Origin: Octopus vulgaris
Lineage: Eukaryota
DNA: 64,000 nt
Assembly: GCA_951406725.2 (NCBI GenBank)
Contig: OX597816.1
Location: 53,630,001 to 53,694,000, forward strand
Direction: 5' to 3'
A program made the translations under genes and the position numbers. This document shows, in pieces, positions 12,084 to 62,290 of the stretch. Below the pieces are notes generated by a model. The model was not told where the DNA came from and searched no databases. It was given only the letters and a program-made list of their open reading frames with translations. The number at the start of each line of letters is the position of its first letter. Positions within the stretch are counted from its first letter, which is position 1.

Positions 12084-12386
12084 TACATTATTTACATTAT
12101 TTACATTGAGCGGATATATGTCCTCATCTTGTTTGTTGTTACCACAATGTTTCGGCTGATTTACTCTCTAGCCTTCATCAGGTGTCCTAGTAGAATTTTG
12201 AACCCAACCCTGGGTTCTCATTCCTAAGGTATTTTGTTGCTGATGTTATTATTATTATTATTATTATCATCATCATTATTTATTCAATGCACTGCCTAGG
12301 ATTGAATGGGTATATAGCGTAATGGTTAAGAGTGCAGGCTACTAACCCCAAGATTGTGAGTTCAATTCCAGGCAGTGCCTTGAATA

Positions 12387-27322: not shown

Positions 27323-27723
27323 TGAGGTATACTTGCCATCTCAATATGGCTAACCACTAAGGGTGGGTGTTACTGTAGCTTGTAGCCCCAGGAGAACATC
27401 GTCTCCAGCTGGCTTTAGGCACACTTTCTGTGCCCTTATGGTATTTGCAAAGGGAGGTCATCCCTCCCTCGTCAACCTCAGTGATACGCACGGACTGTAG
27501 TTTCTAGGTATTGACCTGTCGTCGGAGTATCGACCTGCCGTCGAACTGCAGTCCGTGCGTATCACTGAGGTTGACGAGGGAGGGATGACCTCCCTTTGCA
27601 AATACCATAAGGGCACAGAAAGTGTGCCTAAAGCCAGCTGGAGACGATGTTCTCCTGGGGCTACAAGCTACAGTAACACCCACCCTTAGTGGTTAGCCAT
27701 ATTGAGATGGCTAGTATACCTCA
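27323..27723. mobile_element. Foldback MITE-like element, ~180-bp near-perfect inverted arms
   Basis: 27323-27502 is the reverse complement of 27544-27723 with about two mismatches; 41-bp spacer. Confidence 0.85.
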
Positions 27724-35408: not shown

Positions 35409-35856
35409 CTATGCGATTGTTCAGCCTGATAATATAGCAGCCAAATTTCTCTCATATCACATCTTACTATTTCAATGTATGAAAGATACATTGGATAATG
35501 CAGTCTTGGGTGCTCACTATCTGGCATGGTGGTCATGATTGGAAAGCTTTTAAGTGCAAGTCTGCTTTATCACTATACCACAAGATGACTATTCTCATTA
35601 GCTATGTTGTGTCAAAATGCACAGGTGTACAAAGAAATTAACTATATTGTCAACGATGTTTGGAAGGGTGAATTAATTCAAAAGTTTTAAGATAGGCGCA
35701 GGAGTGGCTGTGTGGTAAGTAGCTTGCTTACCAACCACCTTGTTCTGGGTTCATTCCCACTGCGTGGTACCTTGGGCAAGTGTCTTCTACTATAGCCTAG
35801 GGCCAACCAAAGCCTTGTGAGTGGATTGGGTAGACGGAAACTGAAAGCAGCCTGTC

Positions 35857-35892
<36 letters not shown>

Positions 35893-36269
35893 TTTGGAGG
35901 GAGATACGAATTCGCCTGTCTATATAAATGTAGAGATGCTAGTGGACCGTTTATCGTTCGATGTCGCCTGATCGAGTTGGTGTAATGGGTGAGTTTTTTT
36001 CCTAGCATTTCTAGATTTATAGGAAATATTATGTTGACAAGGAAATGAACTTTCTATTCTGATCCAGAAACGAATTCGTCCATAATTAATCCAATAGGCT
36101 GGGATTTCGTTGTCTTCTTTCTCTTTACCATATACGGGTTACAAACTCTGTTTGTTTGTGGAGACTTTTTTACTAGTAGTAGAAATAGTGACCTATTTGG
36201 CTGCTATTTCTAATATTTTCAGTATGTGGTTTTGAGCAACTTGTTGCAATTAACCCTTTATTATAATTA

Positions 36270-36357
<88 letters not shown>

Positions 36358-37887
36358 GTATATGTTTGTGTGTTTGTGTTTGTCCCCACCAACATCGCTT
36401 GAAAACTGATGGTGGTGTGTTTACATCCCCATAACTTAGTGGTTCAGCAAAAGAGAACCAATAGAATAAGTACTAGGCTTACAAAGAATAAGTCCTGTGG
36501 TCCATTTGCTCAACTAAAGGCATTGCTCCAGCATGGCTGCAATCAAATGACTGAAACAATTAAAAGAGCAAAGAATAATTAGTATAAAAGAATAATTAAG
36601 AAAATTTGAATTTAGTAGGCATGCACAACATTAATATACAAAGTGACTGAATGGCTGAATGAGCAAACAAACATTTATGCACAAATTATCAAGGCAAGTT
36701 GTAATTAAACTTCTAAAGTAATCATTATGAATATTAACATTATTTTGTGCAATTATCATACTTTTCATGATTTAAAAAAAATCATTAAAGCAGGAGTAGA
36801 TTGCTGAGTGAGGTATTGGTGTACTGATTGCATTCAGCCTGACAATTAGCATGAATATGAGGATAGCAATGAACACATCTTCACTGGGGACCCTAACAAA
36901 AGGAGACATATTAGGCTATACAGTTATTTTATGGTACCTTTTTCTTTTATTTATTTTTATTTAAGGGTTTTTATCAACCAAATCAATACTAGAACCTATC
37001 TTTTAAGTCCAGTATTTTTTTCTTATTTCTTTACTGCCTACAAGGGGCTAAACATAGAGGGGGAAAACAAGGACAGACAAACGGATTAAGTCAATTACAT
37101 CGACCCCAGTGTGTAACTGGTGCTTAATTTATCGACCCCAAAAGGATGAAAGGCAAAGTCGACCTCGGCGGAATTTTGAACTCAGAACATAACGGCAGAC
37201 AAAATACCACTAAGCATTTCGCCCGGCATGCCTACGTTTCTGCCAGCTCACCACCTCATAAGTCTGGTATTTATTCTATTATTCTATCAGTTTCTTTTGC
37301 CAAACTGCTAAGTTATGGGAATGTAAATAAAACAGCATCGGTCGACAAGCAGTGGGTGGAGAACAAACGCAGACACAAAGACACATGCACACACACACAC
37401 TCACACACACACACACACACACATTGGGTTTCCACACAGTTTCCATCTACCAAATTCTCTCACAAGGCATCAATCAACCTGGGGCTATAAATGAAAAACT
37501 TGCCCAATGTGCTATGTCATGGGACAGAACCTATAGCTACATGATTGCAAAACGAGCTTTTTAACCACACAGCCATACCTGTAGTTTGGTTCTACTATTT
37601 GTCAGAAAAGCTCGTTAAATAATAAAATATACATTAGAATCAGGTATATTATAGCTTATTGGGAAACCAAAAAAGATGTTTGATCAGACTATGATATAAA
37701 ATTTACTACTAAAATATCAGCATTGATAGAGCAGACTTGCACTTAAAAGCTTTCCAATCATGACCACCATGCCAGATAGTGAGCACCCAAGACTGCATTA
37801 TCCAATGTATCTTTCATACATTGAAATAGTAAGATGTGATATGAGAGAAATTTGGCTGCTATATTAGCAGGCTGAACAATCACATAG
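35409..37887. repeat. Long-range inverted repeat pair, arms 35409-35572 and 37724-37887
   Basis: ~164-bp arms are reverse complements with about three mismatches. Confidence 0.85.
35694..36570 (+). mobile_element. SINE family A split at its central (TA)n by a ~370-bp insertion
   Basis: Head 35694-35857, unrelated sequence about 35891-36265, body resumes about 36360. Confidence 0.75.
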
Positions 37888-42152: not shown

Positions 42153-42262
<110 letters not shown>

Positions 42263-42305
42263 AATAAAAAATGGAGTCAACGCAGGTTTAAACAAGTATT
42301 TTTTC

Positions 42306-42388
42306 TTTCTACATATGTTTCAAAAATTCCACTGATACTTATTCAAAAGAATAAAAGGTATAAACAATGCAATCTTCTCTTCGGGAAA
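42306..42388 (-). ncRNA. Hammerhead ribozyme (copy in the inverted arm)
   Basis: Reverse complement of 45897-45979. Confidence 0.7.
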
Positions 42389-42590
42389 GTGAAAAAACGA
42401 AACTTGTCAATACGACATTTTAGCAAAAAATGATGGATTCGTATAGCGATAGACAGAACGCTATTAATATTGTTTAAAAAAACGTTATATGATATAACGT
42501 CATAAGTAGCTAACAGAAAGAGTAGGGATATTAATAGTGAATGTTAAATATAAAGGAAATTAAAGTCTAAACTATATATAATGATAGAGA

Positions 42591-43118
42591 CTACTTATAT
42601 GCACTAAAAGTATGCTTTTGCCAATGCTTACATCTGTATGCTCGTTCTATAACCGTGTTTACTAGAGTATTTTTAGAAAAAATAATGAAAAATAGCTCAG
42701 AATTGCAGAGAAGACAGAATTTCTTGCCTTTGTCATATGGTATCGAAATTGAGAGGATCAACCATTCCAAATGAAATTGTTCATTGTGGTCTTTTAAATT
42801 CCAAATCAGTTTGCTGAGACCGGTACTATTCCGTTTATTTCTATCCCTAAATGTTGAGTAATGGATAGAAATTCTCTTAGATAACTCTAACGATGTGCTT
42901 CCAATGTAAAATCGTACTTTATTACGAGTACTGATTATACACTGGTATATAGAATTTTTAATCTTAGAGTTACTTGACATAAATTTAATTCTATTGGGAT
43001 TGACTTCAGATACAATAACCTTGTTATTAATATTTCTAGAGGGTTGGATGGTAGTAGCTAAATTAATGTTAGTATTAGTAAATGTATTAATATTTAACAG
43101 TTTGTTATTATGAGAAGA
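42591..43118 (-). pseudogene. Inverted duplicate of the GIY-YIG C-terminus
   Basis: ORF 42591-42980 matches the last 129 aa of 44513-45694 except one residue (LIW vs LTW). Confidence 0.9.
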
Positions 43119-43365
43119 AAAAATACTTGTTTAAACCTGCGTTGACTCCATTTTTTATTCCTATTATTCAAATATTCAACGTAAACACGAAGTTTCAACC
43201 TTTATAAACAAGGAGTTACAACATCTTTACTTGTGAGATTTTGCTGCCCTGGTAACTATTCATTCATTTATCCGTGTTAATTGTTAACAAGGTAAAATAC
43301 ACTCATCTATTTATAATACTTTAATCAGGTTTATTAATAACCTGCTAACTGAATAGTTACAGCAT

Positions 43366-44511
43366 ATGGAGTTATTGAATATTAACGCATCTCTTAAGGA
43401 CATTCCTATTCCACCTAAGAATGTTTTCCTTAAACAACTTGTCAATAAGATTAATTCATTCATCAACCGAATAAGATGGCTTACCTTTTTCTTTGACAAA
43501 AATGACACTCAACAACACACTAATGATAAAACATCTGAGTTCAGCAAGTTATTTAAATCTAAAAATAGTCCGCCGCCTAACCCAAGGTTGAAGCAATTTG
43601 AAGATGATCTCTGGTCCATTGTGAGAAATGTAAAATTTCAACGGTCACCACTAAGAAATAAACATCTGAGGTATCTTCGCAACATCACCAAAGAAATCAA
43701 TTCTATGGATACTATGTTGGTTCAATCTGATAAGACTGGTAATCTGTACAAACTTTATAAAGACTATTATTTGGAATTACTTGAAAAAGAAATTCAGAAA
43801 AAGTATAAAATTGCTGATAAAAGAATACTTAAGAAAGCCAACATCGAGGCTATGAAAATCATGGAGAAATATAACCTACAAATGAAGACAGAACCTCTTG
43901 TTCCTAAGCAACCTAGGTTTATTTTGAAGGATCACAAACCAAATTTTTTTACTAACCCATCATTAAGGCTTATCTGCCCTTCTAGCTCTGACATCGGTAT
44001 CCTTAGTAAAAATATACTAGATAAATATATTCCTAATCTAATCAAAACATTAAAACTTAGCTTATGGACTAATTCATTTGACGTAGTTGACTGGTTTAGG
44101 TCTATTAACAGTAAGGTGAGTACGAAGTTTATCCAGTTTGATATTTCCAATTTTTATTCGTCTATTAATCCTATAGTACTTAATAAGGCACTTTGGCTTG
44201 CTCATAACAAAGCTGGTCTCACCCGAGAAGAAATTAATGTTGTGTTGGCAGCCAGAAGATCTATTATTAAATTTGATGATAAGTTGTGGGTCCGTAAAGA
44301 CACACCAGATAGTTTCGATATACCTATGGGAAGTTCTGATTCAGCACAGATAGCTGATTTGGTCTGTATATACATTCTTTTTGAAATGGCTGAAGAGTTC
44401 CCTAACATTTATGGAGGTCTATATCGTGATGATTGTTTACTTTACCTCCAAAATGTTTCTAACCAAAAGGTACAAAAAGTTAAGAACAGTTTAGTTAAAT
44501 TTTTTCAGTAG
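43366..44511 (+). CDS. PLE reverse transcriptase, N-terminal part
   Basis: S.KDIP start, SDKTGNLY (DKG-like), LKDHK, LRLI, FDISNFYSSI, IPMGSSDS, GLYRDD; ends at a 1-nt frameshift. Confidence 0.9.
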   Translation: MELLNINASLKDIPIPPKNVFLKQLVNKINSFINRIRWLTFFFDKNDTQQHTNDKTSEFSKLFKSKNSPPPNPRLKQFEDDLWSIVRNVKFQRSPLRNKHLRYLRNITKEINSMDTMLVQSDKTGNLYKLYKDYYLELLEKEIQKKYKIADKRILKKANIEAMKIMEKYNLQMKTEPLVPKQPRFILKDHKPNFFTNPSLRLICPSSSDIGILSKNILDKYIPNLIKTLKLSLWTNSFDVVDWFRSINSKVSTKFIQFDISNFYSSINPIVLNKALWLAHNKAGLTREEINVVLAARRSIIKFDDKLWVRKDTPDSFDIPMGSSDSAQIADLVCIYILFEMAEEFPNIYGGLYRDDCLLYLQNVSNQKVQKVKNSLVKFFQ

Positions 44512-44512
44512 A

Positions 44513-45694
44513 ATGGGCTTAAAAATCGTTTTTGATGACGATCTGACGAAGGCCAACTTTTTAGATATTACCCTTAATTTACACAGTGACTCTTACTTCC
44601 CATATCATAAACCGTTGACCAATCTTAAGTACATTAGCAAATTTAGTAATCATCCTGGAGCAATTACTAAGAATTTAGTTAAGAATATTTCATTTAGATT
44701 ATCTAAATTATCTGCTAATGTTGATATTTTCAATAATAACGCTGAATTCTATAACTCTGCCTTAATCAAAGCAGGTTATACAGAAAAAATTTTCTACATT
44801 GATTCTGCTCAGTCTAATTGTAAATTCAATAATGTAGTTATGATTTCTAGTCGTAAAAGAATTATTGATAACAAACATAACTTACGCACCGATACAAAGC
44901 GAATGAAGGCAGATAACCCTTATTTATTCCCCTATTACCGATCTAAAAGTAAATATAACACCTTCAAAAGTAATTACGCTATGAATACTAGTAAAAATAT
45001 TTGGTTAATAATTCCTTACGGGAGACAAATTAAATCTAATCTCCCACTGCTGTTTCGTCAAGCTATTGCTAGGAATTTTCCAAATAATTCTAGATATTAC
45101 TCTATAATTAATTCACATAAGGTTAGGATAGGTTTTTCAAACACAAAAAATCTCTTGCAAATTATATCTTCTCATAATAACAAACTGTTAAATATTAATA
45201 CATTTACTAATACTAACATTAATTTAGCTACTACCATCCAACCCTCTAGAAATATTAATAACAAGGTTATTGTATCTGAAGTCAATCCCAATAGAATTAA
45301 ATTTATGTCAAGTAACTCTAAGATTAAAAATTCTATATACCAGTGTATAATCAGTACTCGTAATAAAGTACGATTTTACATTGGAAGCACATCGTTAGAG
45401 TTATCTAAGAGAATTTCTATCCATTACTCAACATTTAGGGATAGAAATAAACGGAATAGTACCGGTCTCAGCAAACTGACTTGGAATTTAAAAGACCACA
45501 ATGAACAATTTCATTTGGAATGGTTGATCCTCTCAATTTCGATACCATATGACAAAGGCAAGAAATTCTGTCTTCTCTGCAATTCTGAGCTATTTTTCAT
45601 TATTTTTTCTAAAAATACTCTAGTAAACACGGTTATAGAACGAGCATACAGATGTAAGCATTGGCAAAAGCATACTTTTAGTGCATATAAGTAG
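44513..45694 (+). CDS. PLE RT thumb plus C-terminal GIY-YIG endonuclease
   Basis: GLKI, NFLDITLNL, YHKP..YISKFSNHP, IYQC..FYIGST..R...H, CLLC..E, terminal RCKH. Confidence 0.9.
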   Translation: MGLKIVFDDDLTKANFLDITLNLHSDSYFPYHKPLTNLKYISKFSNHPGAITKNLVKNISFRLSKLSANVDIFNNNAEFYNSALIKAGYTEKIFYIDSAQSNCKFNNVVMISSRKRIIDNKHNLRTDTKRMKADNPYLFPYYRSKSKYNTFKSNYAMNTSKNIWLIIPYGRQIKSNLPLLFRQAIARNFPNNSRYYSIINSHKVRIGFSNTKNLLQIISSHNNKLLNINTFTNTNINLATTIQPSRNINNKVIVSEVNPNRIKFMSSNSKIKNSIYQCIISTRNKVRFYIGSTSLELSKRISIHYSTFRDRNKRNSTGLSKLTWNLKDHNEQFHLEWLILSISIPYDKGKKFCLLCNSELFFIIFSKNTLVNTVIERAYRCKHWQKHTFSAYK

Positions 45695-45896
45695 TCTCTA
45701 TCATTATATATAGTTTAGACTTTAATTTCCTTTATATTTAACATTCACTATTAATATCCCTACTCTTTCTGTTAGCTACTTATGACGTTATATCATATAA
45801 CGTTTTTTTAAACAATATTAATAGCGTTCTGTCTATCGCTATACGAATCCATCATTTTTTGCTAAAATGTCGTATTGACAAGTTTCGTTTTTTCAC

Positions 45897-45979
45897 TTTC
45901 CCGAAGAGAAGATTGCATTGTTTATACCTTTTATTCTTTTGAATAAGTATCAGTGGAATTTTTGAAACATATGTAGAAA
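45897..45979 (+). ncRNA. Type I hammerhead ribozyme in PLE 3' region, CCGAAGA core, extended stem II
   Basis: TTTC CCGAAGA [GAAGATTGCA..TTATTC-TTTT-GAATAA..TGGAATTTTT] GAAA CATATG TA GAAA; palindromic stem III, 4-bp stem I, predicted cleavage after GUA at 45975. Confidence 0.7.
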
Positions 45980-46167
45980 GAAAAAATACTTGTTTAAACC
46001 TGCGTTGACTCCATTTTTTATTCCTATTATTCAAATATTCAACGTAAACACGAAGTTTCAACCTTTATAAACAAGGAGTTACAACATCTTTACTTGTGAG
46101 ATTTTGCTGCCCTGGTAACTATTCATTCATTTATCCGTGTTAATTGTTAACAAGGTAAAATACACTC

Positions 46168-46218
<51 letters not shown>

Positions 46219-46308
46219 CATTCATACATACATACATGCATGCATACATACATACATACATACATACATACATACATACATACATACATACATACATACA
46301 TACATACA

Positions 46309-46344
<36 letters not shown>

Positions 46345-46618
46345 TGGACTTTCCTGTCAAAGATGACAATATGAGCGTTCAGCTATTGCTGACTGACCTG
46401 CACAAATGATTTGTTTATAATGATTGCTCCCTCCATCAAATCGATATTATCTGAACAGGTACACCATGTACCATGCATAATGTGCTGAAGTGATCACAGA
46501 GCAACATTAGATGAAATGTTTTGCTCAAGAACACAATGAACCACCCAGTCTAGGAACTGAAACCCACAATCTCGTGATCGTGAGGACAACATCCTAACCA
46601 CTAGGCCATATATATATA

Positions 46619-47019
46619 TCTTCTTTATATATAAAAGTCAAGTTGTGTGTCTGTCTCCTACGATTTAGATTCCTAACTACTCCCACATTTTGCGGTGCAG
46701 TTTAACCAAAAGCGGGTATCTTATAGTCGTGATTCATATCGAGCCCTTCTGGGTATTAGCATGCGTCTACGATGAGTCTACGATTTTAAAAAAAATTTAC
46801 CATTTTTTTCCTGTTTAATGCATTTTTTTCGCTATTATATAAGGGAAGTAATTCTCTAAAAATGTTTACGATGAGTCAACGATTTTTAAAAATATTTACC
46901 ATCATTTTTTTTTCCATTTTTGGTGCATTTTTTTTGCTATTTTTTGGCTATAACTCTCTAAAAATGCTTATATAGTTATTTCCCTTATAAACCCGAGCAA
47001 CGCCGGGCGATACTGCTAG
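46619..47019 (+). mobile_element. Non-autonomous Helitron
   Basis: A|TC 5' end (TCTTCTTTATATATAAAAG), 3' hairpin CCCGAGCAACGCCGGG, CTAG|T end, no TSD. Confidence 0.8.
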
Positions 47020-47118
47020 TATATATATATATATATATTCCTTGCATCTCTACTTCACACTCCAAACACACATTCTTCTCTCTTTTCTCTCTCTCTCTCT
47101 CTCTCTGTTTTTTCCAAT

Positions 47119-47176
<58 letters not shown>

Positions 47177-48194
47177 CTTTCTACTAATTGCCATTCTTCT
47201 ACAACTATATTCCATACCTTCTAATCTGCTGTCTCAGCACTCATTTCACATTCCCATAAACAAATTTATCTGCTTAAAAAACATTAAATTCCAAAATCGA
47301 ATATTGTCTTCACAAAACAATTTATCCACTTAAAATCTCACCACTTTATATACAAAATGGAAATTTTCAAGCCTCAATGAATATCCCACTCACTAACTAC
47401 AAAATTCCAACGCAGCAACATTGACTGACATACCACCATACCCTTTCACACTGCACACAACAAAATGACATTTTAACATCTCCAATTTAATTCTATTTAT
47501 TATCTCTTTATTATTTTCTTTCTAATCACAAAGCCAGACTTTCACCTTTACATTCCGAATTGACTCAGCCAACTCACACTCATACACACATCCCCAAAAT
47601 GAAATTACTGCCTTCAAATAAAAACAAATAAATTATTTTCTTTTTAAAAAAAAAGATGCCATCAAAAGAAAAAGGCAAGATGATAAACACGTTTCACAAA
47701 TAAATACATCAATCTTGCATGATTTCCACCCAGGAAACTCTACTTGTCATTCTAAGGCATTGAATTTTCCAATGCACACAGTAGAAATCATTATTCAACA
47801 ATGCCTACTGTGACTCCCAGCCTTGCCAGCTCTTGTCAAACCATCCAACCCATAGCAGCATGAAAAACGGACATTAAATGATGATGATAATGGTGATTAT
47901 GATAATGATGATGATGGTGGTGGTTGTTTGGTGGTGGTGGTGGTGGTGGTGGTGGAGGTGATAATTTATATAACATATATAATATACATATAATATATAA
48001 TCATATATATATATATATATATATATATGCTAGGAAATGGATGCGTGGCGTTCAATCAAATAATAATATAAATAATATATATATATATATATATAGTTAC
48101 TCCATACATGATCAAAGAGAACACACAACAACACGAGGACGTGGAACAAGTATAGTGCTATTGGACGCTCAGGAAAGGAAAGAAAGAAGGAGGA

Positions 48195-48227
48195 TTTAAC
48201 GTTTCAAGCGGAGCTCTTCGTCAGAAA
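48195..48227 (-). ncRNA. Minimal hammerhead ribozyme in a short PLE-type element (about 48095-48300)
   Basis: Minus: TTT CTGACGA AGAGCTCCGCTT GAAA CG TT AAA; palindromic ACGT stem III. Confidence 0.7.
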
Positions 48228-48575
48228 CATAGAAAAAGGAAAGGTCCAAGGAAGGGAAGACGGAGAAAGAAAATCACCAATGATACACACACGGTCACAT
48301 ATATATATATATATATATATATATGCGCATATATATATATGTATATATACATACATACACACATATATATACATATATATATGCGCATATATATATATAT
48401 ATATATAGATATATATATATATGGGTGTGTGTGATTGTGTATAGAAGAATATATTAATAAAAAGAATTCCAACCTTGTCTGATTTTCACGTTTTATTTAC
48501 AATCTTATAATGATAATATATTATAATTGAGTAAACTAAAATGAAATAGTAGAATGTTAAATATTCATTCTGATT

Positions 48576-48618
48576 GAACTAGTACTTTCATGCATTGAAT
48601 TCTGCAATCTTCGGGTTC
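48576..48618 (-). ncRNA. Hammerhead ribozyme with CCGAAGA core
   Basis: Minus: GAAC CCGAAGA TTGCA-GAATTCAA-TGCAT GAAA GTAC TA GTTC; stem I GAAC/GTTC, palindromic AGTACT stem III. Confidence 0.7.
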
Positions 48619-49113
48619 ATGTAGTAGTGTTGACAGTCATGCTTCACAATTTTTGACTGTAGCAAGATGAGTGATTCTGTGCTATAAATACAGCTGGGTA
48701 GGCTCCAGAGTGCTAGGTTTTGCAAACTGTATTCTGACCAATCAGTGTGTAGTATCACTCAATTACTTAAGCTGATTGGTTGGTTGAGCTGATTGGTTTA
48801 GGCATCACGCTTTGTTGGACAGGTCAAGAGTCCTGTATCTTGACCCTGGCCGAAGCAGCAATTGTTGGGTTATTTTTAGAAATGTTGTAAATATCCTTTG
48901 TCAGAGATTTTTATATTTTTATATTTCAATTGTCATCATCATCATTGTCAGCACCTTAATTATTGTTGCTAGTGGTGATGGTGGTGGCAATAGAACTTTT
49001 AACCCTAAATAAGATAATTTTCCTGCTATCTTCGTCTTGATCACCTTTAGTATTGTTGTTGTTGTTAGTGGTCATGGTCGTAGCAGTGGAAGTAATACCT
49101 CTAAGTATTATTA

Positions 49114-49508
49114 TTATTGCTTATTTAGCTTGGGTTCGAATTTATCAATAAAATTCTTTTCTCTGATTTTCCTCTCGATTTCACTTGGGCTGTGTAATTT
49201 GTAGAATGGAAATATTATATATATTTTCCGACCACATGTTGCTAGGTGGTTACTCAAAGGTATCTGACGGACCTCTGGGTCTCTAATCTGTTGCCGGTGT
49301 ACACGTGAGCGTTCTAATAGTGCGTTTCCCGTCTGACCTACATATATTTCTTCACAATTTGGGCATTTGATGCAGTAAATTAAATTTCTGCTTTTGCAGT
49401 TCATATTCGCGTTTGTGAATATTTTCCCGGTTTTTGTGTTTATATATTGACCGGTATGTATGAATTGGCATGTGCCACATCGGCTATCATTGCATTTAGA
49501 TACCGTGA
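49114..49508 (-). pseudogene. PLE Cys-rich linker plus GIY-YIG endonuclease (C-terminal fragment)
   Basis: CNDSRCGTC linker, CKSRNLIYCIKCPNC..IYVGQT..R...H..SNHL, RE..FI..FEP.LN. Confidence 0.85.
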
Positions 49509-49559
49509 ATATATATATATATATATATATACATGCATACACACATATATATACACATG

Positions 49560-50690
49560 CACATGTGGGTACAGGACGTCACCAACAGAAAACAACAAGA
49601 AATACAAAAACAAATGAGTTCAATACACAAACGAGAGAAACAAATGGAAAACAGGACAAGTAAAACAAAGAACAACCTTTCATCAGTTGTCGGCTGTCTA
49701 TCTACTCCTCATTTCGAGCATTGAATGACAATATGAGTCTTTGAAGACAGTTCCTCCCATAAGTATCAAAATAAAATTTTGGATTTATGGATGGTCAAAG
49801 TTGGGAACAAAAGCAGGACAGTGGAAACATACAAGGAAACCGAACAAAAACAAATATGGAGTTTTTGTTAGACCAGAATGAGGGTAAAAATAGCAAATGC
49901 TGGAGAAATATTTTCTTCGACAAGAGAAAAGATAAGTGAGATAGATAGAATACATCCAGTCCTTAGGACAGGAGTAGATAAACAGCCGACAACTGGTGAA
50001 GGGGCGTTCTTTGTGTTACTTGTCCTATTTTCCATTTGTTTCTCTCGTTGTTTAAATTCATTTGCTTTCATATTTCCTGTTGTTTACTTTTGGTGACGTC
50101 TTGTACCCATATATGCATGTAAGTTTATCATAGCCCTTTTGATGCGATTCTATTCTATACTGTTTTCTCCCCTTCATCGTTTTCTCTCTCTCTCCCTCTT
50201 TCTCTTTTTCTCTCTCTTGTTGCTCACACGTGACCATCGTCCACCTTTCTTTTCCTCATGATCATCTTTCATTTCCTCCAGGACTGTCCAAAGGACTGGA
50301 CGTATTCTATCTCTCTCTCTCTCTTATCTTTTCTCTTGCCAAAGAAAATATTTCTCCAGCTTTCGCTATTTTACCCTTGTTCTGGTCTAACAAACCTCCA
50401 GGTTTGTTTTTGTTTTGGTTTCCTTGTATGTCTCTACTGATCTGTTTTTGTTCCCAACTTTGACCCTCCATAAATCCAAAATTTTATTTTGGTACTTATG
50501 GGAACAACTGTCTTTGAAGACTCATATTGTCATTCAATGCTCGAAATGACAACTGATGAAAGGTCGTTCTTTGTATTACTTGTCCTGTTTTCCATTTGTT
50601 TCTCTCGTTGTTTGTGTATTGAACTCATTTGTTTTTGTATTTCATGTTGTTTACTGTTGGTGACGTCCTGTGCCCATATATGCATGTGTG
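49560..50690. repeat. Inverted and partly triplicated ~400-bp repeat, probably PLE pLTR-derived
   Basis: 49565-49970 inverse of about 50280-50680; 49970-50110 inverse of 49565-49710; (TA)n flanks. Confidence 0.65.
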
Positions 50691-50722
<32 letters not shown>

Positions 50723-50912
50723 TAAGAAAATAAAAAAGGAAAATACGCACACTTACATGGTTATAATATAATTTTTAATGTGTCAATCGGTTTCGCAATC
50801 ACTATTCATGATATAATGTTTAATTTATATGAATATATATTTTTTCTTATTAAGAAGAAATTTGGTCCATGTTGTTTGTAATGAAATTCACGAGTGAATA
50901 TATATATATATT

Positions 50913-51575
50913 ATTTATCTATACAATAATATGTTACATTACTCGATAGTCAAGATAAAACTCTGAGTTTCAGATGCCGAAGTGGAAATCCACAACACCA
51001 TCTCTTCGGTTATCTGGCTATTTGAAAACGCTATGAAAAAATACCGTTATATAAAGGGAAATTACTGTGTTACAACTCTGCTTGCCTGCGTACTTATACA
51101 TCGCAGATCTGGAAAAGCAGCTTAGACCCTACTACATGTCTAAACACAAGGACAGAACTTTTTGGATCATGCCCACATGTGACTAAATTTCTGTTACGTT
51201 TTTGGTCCCCTAAAGAAAACAGATAGAACATGCTTTCTATGTTATGTCCCAAGAAGATTTTATATATTTTTATATATTTTTTATGTATTTTTATATAATT
51301 TTTATGACGAAAAATGCGAGCGATGTATAAGTACGCAGGCAAGCAGAGTTATAACACAGTAATTTCCCTTTATATAACGGTATTTTTTCATAGCGTTTTC
51401 AAATAGCCAGATAACCGAAGAGATGGTGTTGTGGATTTCCACTTCGGCATCTGAAACTCAGAGTTTTATCTTGACTATCGAGTAATGTAACATATTATTG
51501 TATAGATAAATTTCCTCTATTTACATAATATTGAGGTCTCTTTCTTTCTTTTGTTATCTTACCGTTTTACCAATA
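50913..51575 (+). mobile_element. Very short 3' fragment of a second Hydra-like PLE with inverted 5' arm
   Basis: Arms 50913-51104 / 51320-51511; 51107-51226 encodes IWKSSLDPTTCLNTRTELFGSCPHVTKFLLRFWSPKENR*, with an N..E...C.H ending like the 45694 ORF. Confidence 0.7.
51410..51470 (+). ncRNA. Hammerhead ribozyme with CCGAAGA core (mirror copy 50954-51014 minus)
   Basis: GATAA CCGAAGA GATG..GTGGA-TT-TCCAC..CATCT GAAA CTC-A-GAG TT TTATC; stem I GATAA/TTATC. Confidence 0.7.
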
Positions 51576-53552: not shown

Positions 53553-53971
53553 CATCATCATCATCATCATCGTTTAACGTCTGTTTTCCATGCTACCATA
53601 GGTTGGATGGTTTGACCGTGGTCTGAAAAGCCAGGGGCTGCACCAGGCTCCAGTCTGATCTGGCAGTGCTTCTACAGCTAGATGCCCTTCCTAACACCAA
53701 CCACTCCATGTGTGTTGTGGGTGCTTTTTATGTGCCACCGACATAGGTGCCAGGGGAGGCCGGCAATGGCCATGATCGGTTGGTGCGTTTTACATGCCAC
53801 TGGCACAGAAGCCAGTCAAGGTGTCGCTGGCATTGGCCTCATTTGGATGGTGCTTTTTACGTGCCACCGACATGGGTATCACAACTACAATTTCCATTTG
53901 ATTTTTATTTTGATGTTGATGTACTTAACTCAATAGGTCTACTCAAGTGCAGCAGGTCACCCTATGATAAC
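53553..53971 (-). mobile_element. RTE 3'UTR with (GAT)n tail
   Basis: Homologous to about 3825-4229. Confidence 0.75.
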
Positions 53972-54059
53972 AATATGGAACGCTTCACGAATTTGCGTGT
54001 CATCCTTGCACAAGGCCATGCTAATCTTCTCTGTATCATTCCAATTTTAGAATATGTAC
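53972..54059 (-). pseudogene. U6: U6 snRNA retrocopy (5' hairpin missing)
   Basis: Minus: GTACATATTCTAAAATTGGAATGATACAGAGAAGATTAGCATGGCCTTGTGCAAGGATGACACGCAAATTCGTGAAGCGTTCCATATT, with ACAGAGA box and AGC triad. Confidence 0.95.
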
Positions 54060-55844
54060 CCCCATTTCCTTTCCAGAAGAATTGCCCACTGGATTTTTTT
54101 GTTCCTGATCATGTTTTTCCTTCAGGCATCAACCAACAGATATTCAACCTAAACACACACCGCAGTTGACCTCACCTGTCTGGAAGAGCTTATAAAGTTC
54201 ATGAATTACTACCTCTCCTTTCTCTTCCAACCAAATTGTGATAAAAATTATAGTGGTTATAATAAAATCATTCACTATACATTTATGAATAATTATCTAA
54301 TTTATAGATGTTCCAAATTATAATCAGATCAAGCAAAAATTAATTTCCATCAAATTATGATAGTTTTTTTTTATAATGATTGAACAGTGTTAAATTAGGC
54401 AGAATGAAGGGGAAAAAAAACTTTATTTAAGTGCTGTAATCAGTGTGGCCACTGTACATTTCTGCCAAGAAATAATTGCATAGCAACTCTGTGAAAAACA
54501 CCTAATTTTCCTTTGCCTCATAAATGCTGGACATCAGATGTCATATATCATAGTATTTTAAATATGTTTATGAAAAACTGAAAATATCTATGCGTTAAAA
54601 TTACATTTTTTTAATAATTGGCCGAAGTTCCAGAGTAACTCCAGGGCCAAGATTTTTGTGTGTTGGCACTTATCAAACTGGTTTCTAATCAAGGGTTCAT
54701 AAATTTATATACTGGTGATAATGGTATACCCCTGGTTTATTCTGGAACAAATTATTAAAATAGTTATAGCATTACATGTATAATGCATTAAAAAACATGT
54801 ATATACACATTTTGAGTTCTATTTTCCTGTTTGCATCACCAACCTTATGTATTAAGTTTATCTAGCTATTTGTTATCTATTTATCTAGCTATTTGTTAAC
54901 AATTTATCAATTTGTTATCAGTTCTGAAATGGCATTATTTTGTTTTTGTTTTATATTTTGTTGGGGGTTTTTTTGTGCTTCCAAAAAAAAAAACATTAAA
55001 AACATTTTTGAATTGTTAATGAGAATAAAAACAAATCATGTGAAAATTTAAGTAAAGATAGAGTAATTACTGATTTTTTTTCTCTAAAGATATTCCTAAA
55101 ACTGTAAACTAGATTAGGATTCAATGAATAATAAATACATAGTGTTGTGGTTTATCCTTTTAGATCCTATTTAGCATTTATAAATTTATAATAATTTAAA
55201 TTAATAGACATAGAATCACACATCATTCAATCCAGGTTAGATCTGATTGAACAGATAGTAAAGGGTGTTCCTGCTTATCATCCTCTGTATTTTTGTATAT
55301 CTAGGATAGCATTATTGTCTAGTGTATCTTTTTTTTTTTGTTTAAGATAGTAGGTTGGGACTTGAGGTAATTCAGCTGCTATTTCTGACATGTTAGGCAA
55401 CCACAAATGAGCTCCATCAATCTCATATTAGCTGGAATGACATTGTTGTTAATGCTGTAGTTTAACACCAGTAATCCCTTTTTATCTAACATAAACAGCT
55501 TTATATAAAAAATTCCTTACCACATATCTACATTCTTTTCTACGCAAGGCACAAGGCCCAAAATTTGGTGGGAAGAGGGGAAGACGGTTAGATTGAGCCC
55601 AGTACCGAACTGGCACTTAATTTATTGACCCCAAAAGGATGAAAGTTAAAGCTGACCTCGGCAGAATTCGAACTCAGAATGTAAAGACAGAGGAAATACT
55701 GCTAAGCATTTCACCTTGTAAGCTAATGTTTCTGCCAGCTCACTGCCTTACCACATACCTACATTGTGCAAGGATGATACTCTTCGAGTGTCCTATATTT
55801 AACACAATTTTCCTATCTTACTGTAAGGGCTACCTGGCAAAAGC

Positions 55845-57915: not shown

Positions 57916-60290
57916 ATCATCATCATTTAACGTCCGCTTTCCATGCTAGCATGGGTTGGACGGTTCAACTGGGGTCTGGGGAGCCCGAAAGCTGCACCAG
58001 TCCAGTCAGATCTGGCAGTGTTTCTACAGCTGGATGCCCTTCCTAACGCCAACCACTCCGAGAGTGTAGTGGGTGATTTTATGTGCCACCGACACAGGTG
58101 CCAGACGAGGCTGGCAAACGGCCACGCTCGGATGGTGTTTTTTATGTGCCACCGACACAGGTGCCAGACGAGGCTGGCAGACGGCCACGCTCGGATGGTG
58201 TTTTTATGTGCCACCGACACAGGTGCCAGATGAGGCTGGCAAGCGGCCACGATCGGATGGTGTTTGTTACGTGCCCACAGCACGGAGGCCAGTCGATGCG
58301 GTACTGGCTACGGCCACGTTCGGATGGTTTTCTTGTGTGCCACGTGCCACCGGCACTGGTACCACAAAGATACAAATTCCATTGATGTTCATCTATTTTG
58401 ATTTGTTTTGATTTGATTTGATTTTCACTTGCCTCAACAGGTCTTCACAAGTGTCACAAGAAGGAAGGTATGCACAGGTGGACTGACTACGTCCCAGGTA
58501 GGGGCCACAGGTTATGGCCCGACTAGTCTTGCCGGGTCTTCGGATGGTGTTTTTATGTGCCACCGACACAGGTGCCAGATGAGGCTGGCGAACGGCCACG
58601 ATCGGATGGTGTTTGTTACGTGCCCACAGCACGGAGGCCAGTCGGTGCGGTACTGGCTACGGCCACGTTCGGATGGTTTTCTTGCGTGCCACCGGCACTG
58701 GTACCACAAGATACAATTCCATTAATGTTCATCTATTTTGATTTGTTTTGATTTGATTTGATTTGATTTGTTTTGATTTCATTTTGATTTTCACTTGCCT
58801 CAACAGGCCTTCACAAGTGTCACAAGAAGGAAGGTATGCACATGTGGACTGACTACGTCCCAGGTAGGGGCCACAGGTTATGGCCTGACTAGTCTTGCCG
58901 GGTCTTCGGATGGTGTTTTTATGTGCCACCGACACAGGTGCTAGATGAGGCTGGCGAACGGCCACGATCGGATGGTGTTTGTTATGTGCCCACAGCACGA
59001 TGGCCAGTCGATGCGGTACTGGCTACGGCCACGTTCGGATGGTTTTCTTGCGTGCCACAAGATACAATTCCATTAATGTTCATCTATTTTGATTTGTTTT
59101 GATTTGATTTGATTTGATTTGTTTTGATTTCATTTTGATTTTCACTTGCCTCAACAGGCCTTCACAAGTGTCACAAGAAGGAAGGTATGCACAGGTGGAC
59201 TGACTACGTCCCAGGTAGGGGCCACAGGTTATGGCCTGACTAGTCTTGCCGGGTCTTCGGATGGTGTTTTTATGTGCCACCGACACAGGTGCTAGATGAG
59301 GCTGGCGAACGGCCACGATCGGATGGTGTTTGTTATGTGCCCACAGCACGATGGCCAGTCGATGCGGTACTGGCTACGGCCACGTTCGGATGGTTTTCTT
59401 GCGTGCCACCGGCACTGGTACCACAAGATACAATTCCATTAATGTTCATCTATTTTGATTTGTTTTGATTTGATTTGATTTGATTTGTTTTGATTTCATT
59501 TTGATTTTCACTTGCCTCAACAGGCCTTCACAAGTGTCACAAGAAGGAAGGTATGCACAGGTGGACTGACTACGTCCCAGGTAGGGGCCACAGGTTATGG
59601 CCTGACTAGTCTTGCCGGGTCTTCGGATGGTGTTTTTATGTGCCACCGACACAGGTGCTAGATGAGGCTGGCGAACGGCCACGATCGGATGGTGTTTGTT
59701 ATGTGCCCACAGCACGGAGGCCAGTCGATGCGGTACTGGCTACGGCCACGTTCGGATGGTTCTCTTGTGTGCCACCGGCACTGGCACCACAAAGATACAA
59801 ATTCCATTGATGTTCATCTATTTTGATTTGATTTGATTTGATTTTCACTTGCCTCAACAGGTCTTCACAAGTGTCACAAGAAGGAAGGTATGCACAGGTG
59901 GACTGACTAGTCTTGCCGGGTCTTCGGATGGTGTTTTTATGTGCCACCGACACAGGTGCCAGATGAGGCTGGCGAACGGCCATGATCGGATGGTGTTTGT
60001 TACGTGCCCACAGCACGGAGGCCGGTCGATGCGGAACTGGCTACGGCCACGTTCGGATGGTTCTCTTGTGTGCCACCGGCACTGGTACCACAAAGTGTGT
60101 GCCACCGGCACTGGTACCACAAAAATACAGATTCCATTGATGTTCATCTATTTTGATTTGTTTTGATTTTGATTTTGATTTTCACTTGCCTCAACAGGTC
60201 TTCACAAGTGTCACAAGAAGGAAGGTATGCACAGGTGGACTGACTACGTCCCAGGTAGCGGCCATGGGTTATGGCCTGACTAGTCTTGCC
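57916..60290 (-). repeat. RTE 3'UTR with six tandem 337-366-bp units
   Basis: TTCACTTGCCTCAACAGG at 58424, 58790, 59141, 59507, 59844, 60181; single tail at about 57916-58080. Confidence 0.88.
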
Positions 60291-61804: not shown

Positions 61805-62290
61805 GTTAATCCAAACAAGAAAGCACAAAAAAACACAACAACGCGAGGACCTGGAACAAATATAGTATTATTGGACGCTCAGGAAAGAAGGAAAGAAGGA
61901 GGGTTTAACGTTTTGAGCGGAGCTCTTCGTCAGAAACATAGGAGAAGGAAAGATCCAGAGAAGGAAAGACAGAGGAAAAAAATCGCCAACGGTACACACG
62001 AGGTCACATTTTGAAAAAAAAAAAAAAGGGAAAAAAAAATATAATATGCGTGTGTGTGTGTATGTTTGTGTGTCTGTGTTTGTCCTCCCAACATCGCTTG
62101 ACAACCGATGCTGGTGTGTTTACAACCCCGTAACTTAGCGGTTCAGCAAAAGGGACCGATAGAATAAGTACTAAGCTTACAAAGAATAAGTCCTGGCGTC
62201 GACTTGCTTGGCTAAAGGTGGTGCTCCAGCATGGCCATGGTCAAATGACTAAAACAAATAAAAGAGTAAAAGAGTTAAGGAGTAAAGAGT
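61567..62290 (+). mobile_element. SINE family A interrupted in (TA)n by a hammerhead-bearing PLE-type fragment (61810-62010)
   Basis: Insert homologous to 48095-48300; minus 61904-61936 TTT CTGACGA AGAGCTCCGCTC aAAA CGTT AAA. Confidence 0.75.

Follow-up and report, generated by a model that had tools for sequence, protein, structure and literature searches.

Three Penelope-like elements (PLEs), found in a 64,000-nt stretch of the Octopus vulgaris genome (contig OX597816.1, positions 53,630,001 to 53,694,000; hereafter, the window), carry hammerhead ribozyme (HHR) motifs whose core reads CCGAAGA instead of CUGANGA, with C replacing U at position 4 (U4C). On balance, we favour the view that this change was separately fixed in the youngest subfamilies of these elements, where it would lower, without abolishing, self-cutting, and that it is probably tolerated because PLEs mostly copy uncut RNA. 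All coordinates are window positions; the genome searched measures 2.8 Gb.

Hammerhead motifs in the window

The window was searched by using a type I hammerhead descriptor which leaves position 4 free. Five matches were obtained, all reading CCGAAGA, at 45901(+), 48614(-), 51415(+), 42384(-) and 51009(-), and 200 local dinucleotide shuffles produced two matches in total, none of them with C4. The matches, which belong to three families, F1 to F3, are the following:

45896-45980, + strand: F1 hammerhead, type I; C4 at 45902, U11.1 at 45963, predicted cut after A17 at 45975
42305-42389, - strand: F1 hammerhead, identical second copy in the inverted 5' arm
48575-48619, - strand: F2 hammerhead, type I; C4 at 48613, predicted cut after A17 at 48580
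51409-51471, + strand: F3 hammerhead, type I; C4 at 51416, predicted cut after U17 at 51465
50953-51015, - strand: F3 hammerhead, identical second copy in an inverted arm

The F1 motif is composed of stem I CUUUC/GAAAG, the CCGAAGA core, a 7-bp stem II with G.U as its first pair, GAA, the palindrome ACAUAUGU and a GUA site. In F2, stem I (UGAAC/GUUCA) and the core are followed by U.U and then UGCA/UGCA, stem III AGUACU and a CUA site; in F3, by GAUG/CAUC, with one extra nucleotide before G12, ACUCAGAGU and a GUU site, stem I being the 6-bp AGAUAA/UUAUCU. Stem III is self-complementary in all three, with predicted self-duplex energies of -7.0 (ACAUAUGU), -4.8 (AGUACU) and -7.4 (ACUCAGAGU) kcal/mol. 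Descriptor and reading both bear out the original prediction, which had reported three motifs with differing stems and the same CCGAAGA core; its stem I of 4-5 bp holds for F1 and F2 (5 bp each), but not for F3.

The window motifs display the elements which define the hammerhead class (CYGANGA, GAAA and a UH site around a three-way junction), and, as in the type I dimer hammerheads of PLEs, stems I and II can be formed and stem III is palindromic. The U at position 4 of the canonical CUGANGA core is missing from all five, as well as from the majority sequences of their families. They are a variant of the minimal PLE hammerhead (min-HHR), not canonical-core members.

The CYGANGA 7-mer by itself is not enriched in the window (48 occurrences vs 36.6 expected; 7 of 100 shuffles were as high), no hammerhead was reported there by Rfam at gathering or E-value thresholds, and the monomer folding energies of the motifs are ordinary (z from -0.2 to -1.3). 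Five further CCGAAGA sequences, located in a tandem repeat at 58.4-60.1 kb, were rejected as hammerheads, being devoid of GAAA and of hammerhead stems. The repeat (58382-60065) is a GC-rich tandem array of 351/366-nt units inside a repeat resembling a short interspersed element (SINE).

Host elements and their clades

The motifs are contained within the following elements:

42258-46178, + strand: F1 insertion (Hydra-like PLE); inverted arm 42258-43124, forward copy from about 43115 to 46178
48426-49510, - strand: F2 copy (Neptune-type PLE), 5'-truncated; GIY-YIG end of the open reading frame (ORF; stop at 49114) plus 3' repeat
50898-51526, + strand: F3 insertion (Hydra PLE), short; inverted arms 50898-51104 and 51320-51526, last endonuclease codons between them

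Each motif lies in the 3' repeat of its PLE (the pseudo-long terminal repeat, pLTR), on the sense strand and 3' of the ORF for reverse transcriptase and endonuclease (RT-EN). In the F1 insertion, the RT-EN frame (43357-45694) is split by a frameshift near 44500. Intact relatives were identified for F1 (L093, a 730-aa frame ending at the locus break within the endonuclease), F2 (L092, with two ORFs) and F3 (L188, arranged in 2.58-kb tandem units).

The F1 and F3 proteins share 33% identity over about 700 aa, while F2 shows only patchy identity (22-27%) to either of them. Sequences were compared with the clade features given in the available part of Craig et al. 2021 (PMC8557442). The F3 protein (L188) shows those of the Hydra clade, i.e. 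RWK, DKT, the CxCX5C linker, CxxC/CxH and a C-terminal endonuclease, with no CCHH, in a unit of about 2.6 kb (below 3 kb) with (TA)n flanks. The F2 protein (L092) shows those of the Neptune clade, i.e. GLKF (GxKF), DKG, a CX4CxxC linker (CX2-5CxxC), CCHH and, at the C terminus, GIY-YIG, with a separate upstream ORF; both families are assigned by motifs alone. F1 (L093) has DKT, RWL and CxxC/CxH, and is called only Hydra-like because the CxCX5C linker is absent, in spite of its other motifs and its identity to F3. Pfam returned a GIY-YIG match and a weak RVT_1 match for F2, and recognised neither the F1 nor the F3 protein.

Judging from these features, two PLE clades are involved, F1 and F3 being Hydra-type and F2 Neptune-type. 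The three families had originally been described as unrelated; F1 and F3 are in fact related, whereas F2 belongs to another clade and C4 was apparently gained separately in each.

At L092:1687-5285, the upstream 454-codon frame of F2 overlaps that of RT-EN, in the manner of frameshifted Neptune elements. Many loci contain F2 in tandem units of 4,271 nt.

C4 as the majority state

Genome-wide, exact matches to an F2 pattern unbiased at position 4 were 1,118 with C4 and 12 with U4. For F1 and F3, counts were made by hand on the first 100 listed exact-pattern matches, in coordinate order from contig C1; the counts given below for the families F4, F5, F6 and the retrozyme-like repeats also cover the first 100 listed exact-pattern matches. 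F1 (998 matches) gave 61 CCGAAGA, 10 CTGAAGA, 25 CTGATGA and 4 others; F3 (5,799 matches) gave 73 CCG, 25 CTG and 2 others. Motifs from the best-scoring copies (30 loci per family, a sample biased towards the query) had C4 in 35/35, 36/36 and 38/38 cases. C4 was also present in contigs from other organisms' sequencing runs, in three for F2 and in two for F1, a third having U4 in F1; the change is not dated by this.

CCGAAGA thus prevails over CTGAAGA in all three families. A recurrent variant had been preferred to random decay on the ground that one of the elements was very young; the preference stands, C4 being the majority state in young F1, F2 and F3, and the ground has to be restated, as all three elements are young, not one. 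The expectation that CUGANGA searches miss the variant agrees with the available parts of the published sets: position 4 is U in 56/56 rows of Fig S3 of Cervera & De la Pena 2014 (PMC4209133) and in 26/26 Hydra rows of File S2 of PMC8557442, with C4 in 0/56 and 0/26, both sets having been selected for CUGANGA.

Direction and timing of the change

In F2, 11 of the 12 U4 matches carry shared markers of an older subfamily (e.g. at -16, +51 and +163), their identity to the young subfamily being 85-98%, as against 99-100% among its own members; the twelfth (L176) is a young copy reverted to T. F1 sequences can be ordered as a ladder, from a GC-rich stem II with CUGAUGA to CUGAAGA and CCGAAGA, followed by C17A and then by G10.1.U11.1.

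When position 4 was masked, the C4 rows of F1 formed one branch (25 rows, support 100/98), and those of F3 also formed one, weakly supported (42 rows, 58/78; one row below 90 nt was excluded). In trees that kept this column, C4 rows were nested among diverged U4 rows, using a midpoint root. On the best reading of these data, C4 arose recently on three separate occasions, once per family and each time in the youngest subfamily, the older sisters having U4.

CpG decay would also give the mirror product CCA, which is rare in comparison to CTG: 2 vs 35 in F1, 0 vs 25 in F3 and 3 vs 21 in F4. Because of this rarity, and because they carry subfamily markers, U4 copies are not regarded as decayed C4 copies.

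Conservation of the fold

In the F1 lineage (16 rows), 95-100% of the cells are paired in stems I-III, as compared to 44-55% in slid controls. Three pairs have changed on both sides, for 14 cells vs 5.3 in shuffled alignments; covariation of the stems, whose absence would have spoken against the original prediction, is therefore present in this lineage. A pair-count measure did not beat shuffles (382/500), and the proposed distal helices of F1 are poorly supported (30% and 61%). The core stems of F2 and F3 hardly vary. The other invariant core letters are unaltered in young masters.

A compensatory partner for C4 was sought in U11.1. This candidate was dropped, as C4 came first in F1 and F3 and F4 has C4 with C11.1; the idea is also weakened by U before GAA being common among the Hydra HHRs in the available part of PMC8557442.

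Other hammerhead families in the genome

A sample of 120 evenly spaced 10-kb stretches (1.2 Mb) was scanned with the descriptor, allowing one core mismatch. The 45 matches included 19 canonical, 10 A6U, 5 U4C, 4 U3-A8 and 7 scattered other cores; three shuffles of the sample gave about 2 matches each, and the C3-G8 class was absent from them. In this sample, the core states which extend over whole families are U4C, A6U and the known U3-A8 only.

The U4C matches of the sample fall into two further families. F4 (11,189 matches) has 74 CCG, 21 CTG, 3 CCA and 2 CAG. No PLE ORF was found upstream of the F4 copies examined, and the likeness of this family to PLEs is confined to its motif, its (TA)n ends and a resemblance to F6. 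In F5 (5,638 matches) only 5 have C4. F6, which forms the 3' end of a Neptune-type PLE, has A6U in 96 cases (15,211 matches), and its position 7 takes all four letters (e.g. L272-L291, L221:7187). Retrozyme-like tandem repeats of 360 nt form two families (1,275 matches), which have U4 in 99 cases and are mostly U3-A8.

A rough model, with estimated inputs, assigns P ~0.009 to 3/4 fixed core changes being the same transition. A rough neutral model, in which the chance of fixation (0.11 per lineage) and the number of lineages (about 15) are both estimates, gives P = 0.07 for at least four C4 lineages. U4C therefore seems to be specifically tolerated, while the neutral model is not rejected and the tuned activity suggested originally is no more than a possibility.

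Metagenomes searched with the F3 protein yielded four loci, two of which had a hammerhead-like motif, both with U4, too few to judge other animals. One metagenome contig (L248:265 and 3024) contains a complete Hydra-type PLE, 46% identical to F3, with a U4 hammerhead in both terminal repeats.

Members of these families are also present in the window. Two decayed F4 copies, at 48190-48230(-) and 61900-61940(-), have CTGACGA, F4 being about three-quarters CCGACGA genome-wide; decayed F5 hammerheads at 12181(-), 12487(+) and 17234(-) have canonical U4. Elsewhere in the genome, the retrozyme-like repeats are young and 359-362 nt long, one family being canonical and the other U3-A8 (L228:2307-4540; L138:8667-9430; L294-L297).

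Read-through and 5' ends of insertions

Among near-full-length copies, the start lies upstream of the 5' cut site in 15/28 for F1 and in 20/30 (of 214) for F3. In F2, an intact C4 motif is found about 275 nt upstream of ORF1 in 12 of the 13 evaluable copies on contig C1 (by coordinates; one more C1 match falls beyond the listed range). Eight of the 58 F1 and F3 starts fall at +1..+40 past the cut site, vs 2.5 expected, and none at -39..0 (P ~0.004, post hoc); the forward F1 copy of the window, beginning at about 43115, 3 nt past the predicted cut site, is one of the eight, and some starts lie in shared tandem arrays. Past the cut site, about 50-200 nt are retained in the 3' copies examined, whose templates therefore appear to have been uncut at the 3' ribozyme.

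Interpretation of the C4 change

In the proposed mechanism, two RNA copies would pair through the palindromic stem III and give an active dimer. If the 3' ribozyme cut, the RNA would lose the 50-200 nt downstream of it, in which copying is expected to begin, and slow cleavage would therefore come at little cost. An occasional cut at the upstream copy would free the element's 5' end, and selection would in this way keep the rest of the core. The predicted ribozymes are likely to be slower and dependent on dimers, weak cleavage being sufficient.

Several points weigh against this interpretation. The polarity of the change depends on nesting and copy identity, because the roots are midpoint roots; the F2 tree, built on 104 columns, leaves it unsettled, and so does the tree of F4. 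The descriptor tolerates one core mismatch only, and more decayed families would escape it. Strong disruption is expected from a change at A6 of the hammerhead core; the fixation of A6U in F6, a family of about 15,000 copies, therefore implies that a PLE is able to spread with a badly altered core. The excess of starts past the cut site could as well reflect stalling of the reverse transcriptase at stem I or a promoter, and 5' starts were mapped in C4 copies alone. For a type III hammerhead, a scan by mutation gave low activity in all single mutants of the CUGA region (available part of PMC9901934), and C4 combined with weak stems could therefore be nearly dead. Read-through is not specific to C4 either: for an anole PLE ribozyme, the available part of PMC11167929 reports no reads ending at the cut site.

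A wider and more tentative possibility is that, time and again, PLEs weaken the ribozyme they carry (by U4C on three or four occasions and by A6U on one, all in a single genome), since a cut RNA is lost as a template for reverse transcription, and that attenuated lineages take over the families. If so, over 25,000 hammerheads with non-canonical cores would be present here, and likely many in other animals, unseen by CUGANGA searches; pairs of U4 and C4 subfamilies, one ribozyme letter apart, would directly probe the purpose of the PLE ribozyme.

Positive selection for a weaker ribozyme, where U4C spares full-length templates and C4 masters out-replicate U4 masters until they take over the family, is rather unlikely. 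It would account for C4 being the mark of the youngest, expanded subfamily in each of F1 to F3 and prevailing in F4, for the C17A change and the loss of the G10.1-C11.1 pair which followed C4 in F1, for A6U in F6, the largest family found, and for U4 being kept by the retrozyme-like repeats, which are expected to need cleavage; Naiad PLEs without canonical ribozymes also reach high copy numbers, according to the available part of PMC8557442. The neutral model, however, reaches the observed number of lineages with P = 0.07, C4 is infrequent in F5, several young families keep U4, and the retrozyme control consists of two families only.

It is quite unlikely that C4 acts as a folding fix, freeing the CUGA strand from mispairing with adjacent sequence and leaving net cleavage similar or higher. 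The predicted probability of the core being paired at 37 C does fall from U4 to C4 in F1 (0.72-0.80 in immediate U4 sisters vs 0.05-0.48) and in natural F2 copies (mostly 0.44-0.47 vs 0.15-0.17), but not in F3 (0.23-0.60 vs 0.26-0.58) or F4 (0.35-0.43 vs 0.52); older U4 copies of F1 are at 0.40, and monomer models leave out both the dimer and any bound protein.

That the ribozyme is dead in C4 lineages, the three-stem fold surviving solely as a signal for protein binding or packaging, is very improbable. Insertion in vitro does occur without cleavage (PMC11167929, in its available part), most near-full-length copies read through, and both the A6U family and the low activity of the CUGA mutants point the same way. 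Against it, the single-stranded catalytic letters G5, G8, A9, G12, A13 and A14 are unchanged from one C4 subfamily to the next in F1, F3 and F4, and there is the small excess of 5' starts past the cut site.

An artefact, be it an ancestral C4 decaying to U4, A-to-I editing of antisense RNA or an assembly error, is hardly credible: although C4-G5 is a CpG, one young F2 copy reverted to T and double-stranded RNA arises from the inverted arms, CCA and CTG should be equally frequent under CpG decay, the U4 copies bear subfamily-specific markers, F2 shows no excess of A>G or T>C among its old-to-young changes (by eye) and C4 is present in contigs of other runs, so that neither CpG decay nor editing was retained as the source of C4.

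Relation to known hammerheads

According to the available parts of Cervera & De la Pena 2014 (PMC4209133) and Craig et al. 2021 (PMC8557442), the HHRs of PLEs share with the window motifs the position in the pLTR, the type I topology, the UH site, a stem I of 4-6 bp and a palindromic stem III. A stem II base with U.U or an extra nucleotide, as found here, is common in the Hydra list of PMC8557442. U3-A8 is the sole core change described for PLE HHRs in the same parts of the two papers. Canonical HHRs are stated to be "universally present" in Hydra (PMC8557442, available part), whereas the cores of young F1 and F3 are non-canonical.

U4C is not new for hammerheads. The available part of Perreault et al. 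2011 (PMC3088659) cites a viroid U4C which "considerably decreases activity in vitro" yet supports infectivity, and that of PMC13481778 reports 1,305 deep-sea virome motifs, obtained with a CYGANGA descriptor and having C or U at position 4; the substitution is identical to that of the window motifs. These differ from the viroid and virome variants in being fixed in subfamilies of animal retrotransposons, in thousands of copies and with more than one origin in one genome, and in being of the short-stem-III dimer type, without evident tertiary contacts. The novelty lies in the setting: substitution and ribozyme are both known, but here fixation has occurred repeatedly and recently in animal retroelements of high copy number, beside an A6U family. 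No U4C in PLEs was found in the literature searched, outside which lay Lünse et al. 2017, which may list such variants; the available parts of PMC6765202, PMC7229834, PMC6155905, PMC3907566 and bioRxiv 2026.07.22.740005 contain nothing on U4C.

The Poseidon element PAc of Anolis (Frangieh et al. 2024, PMC11167929, available part) has, as shared features, a pLTR hammerhead upstream of an internal reverse transcriptase start and the insertion of uncut RNA. Its ribozyme-dead mutants insert normally in vitro, and cleavage needs protein. The PAc ORF begins inside stem II, whereas in the octopus the motif is placed about 200-270 nt upstream of where the ORF begins. Position 4 is not discussed in the available part of that paper.

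The role of PLE hammerheads is an open question, as the available parts of PMC8557442 and PMC11167929 indicate. F2 provides a natural single-letter comparison, since its old and young ribozymes differ at position 4 only and the latter exist in 1,118 exact copies. The recurrence of the same core change, together with the retention of U4 by retrozyme-like repeats, suggests how much cleavage a PLE needs. By extrapolation from the first 100 listed matches, about 14,000 C4 and about 14,600 U6 motifs in this genome are missed by CUGANGA searches, and claims of ribozyme-less PLEs may therefore need rechecking.

Other features of the window

Another repeat, in inverted and direct copies, occupies 49570-50060 and 50390-50680 and contains CTGATGA without an evident GAAA partner. 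A U6 snRNA copy with an altered 5' stem, probably a pseudogene, is located at 53969-54068(-) (84 bits). Near-perfect inverted repeats at 27323-27723 (180 nt, 99%) and 35409-37887 (164 nt, 98%) may be more young insertions.

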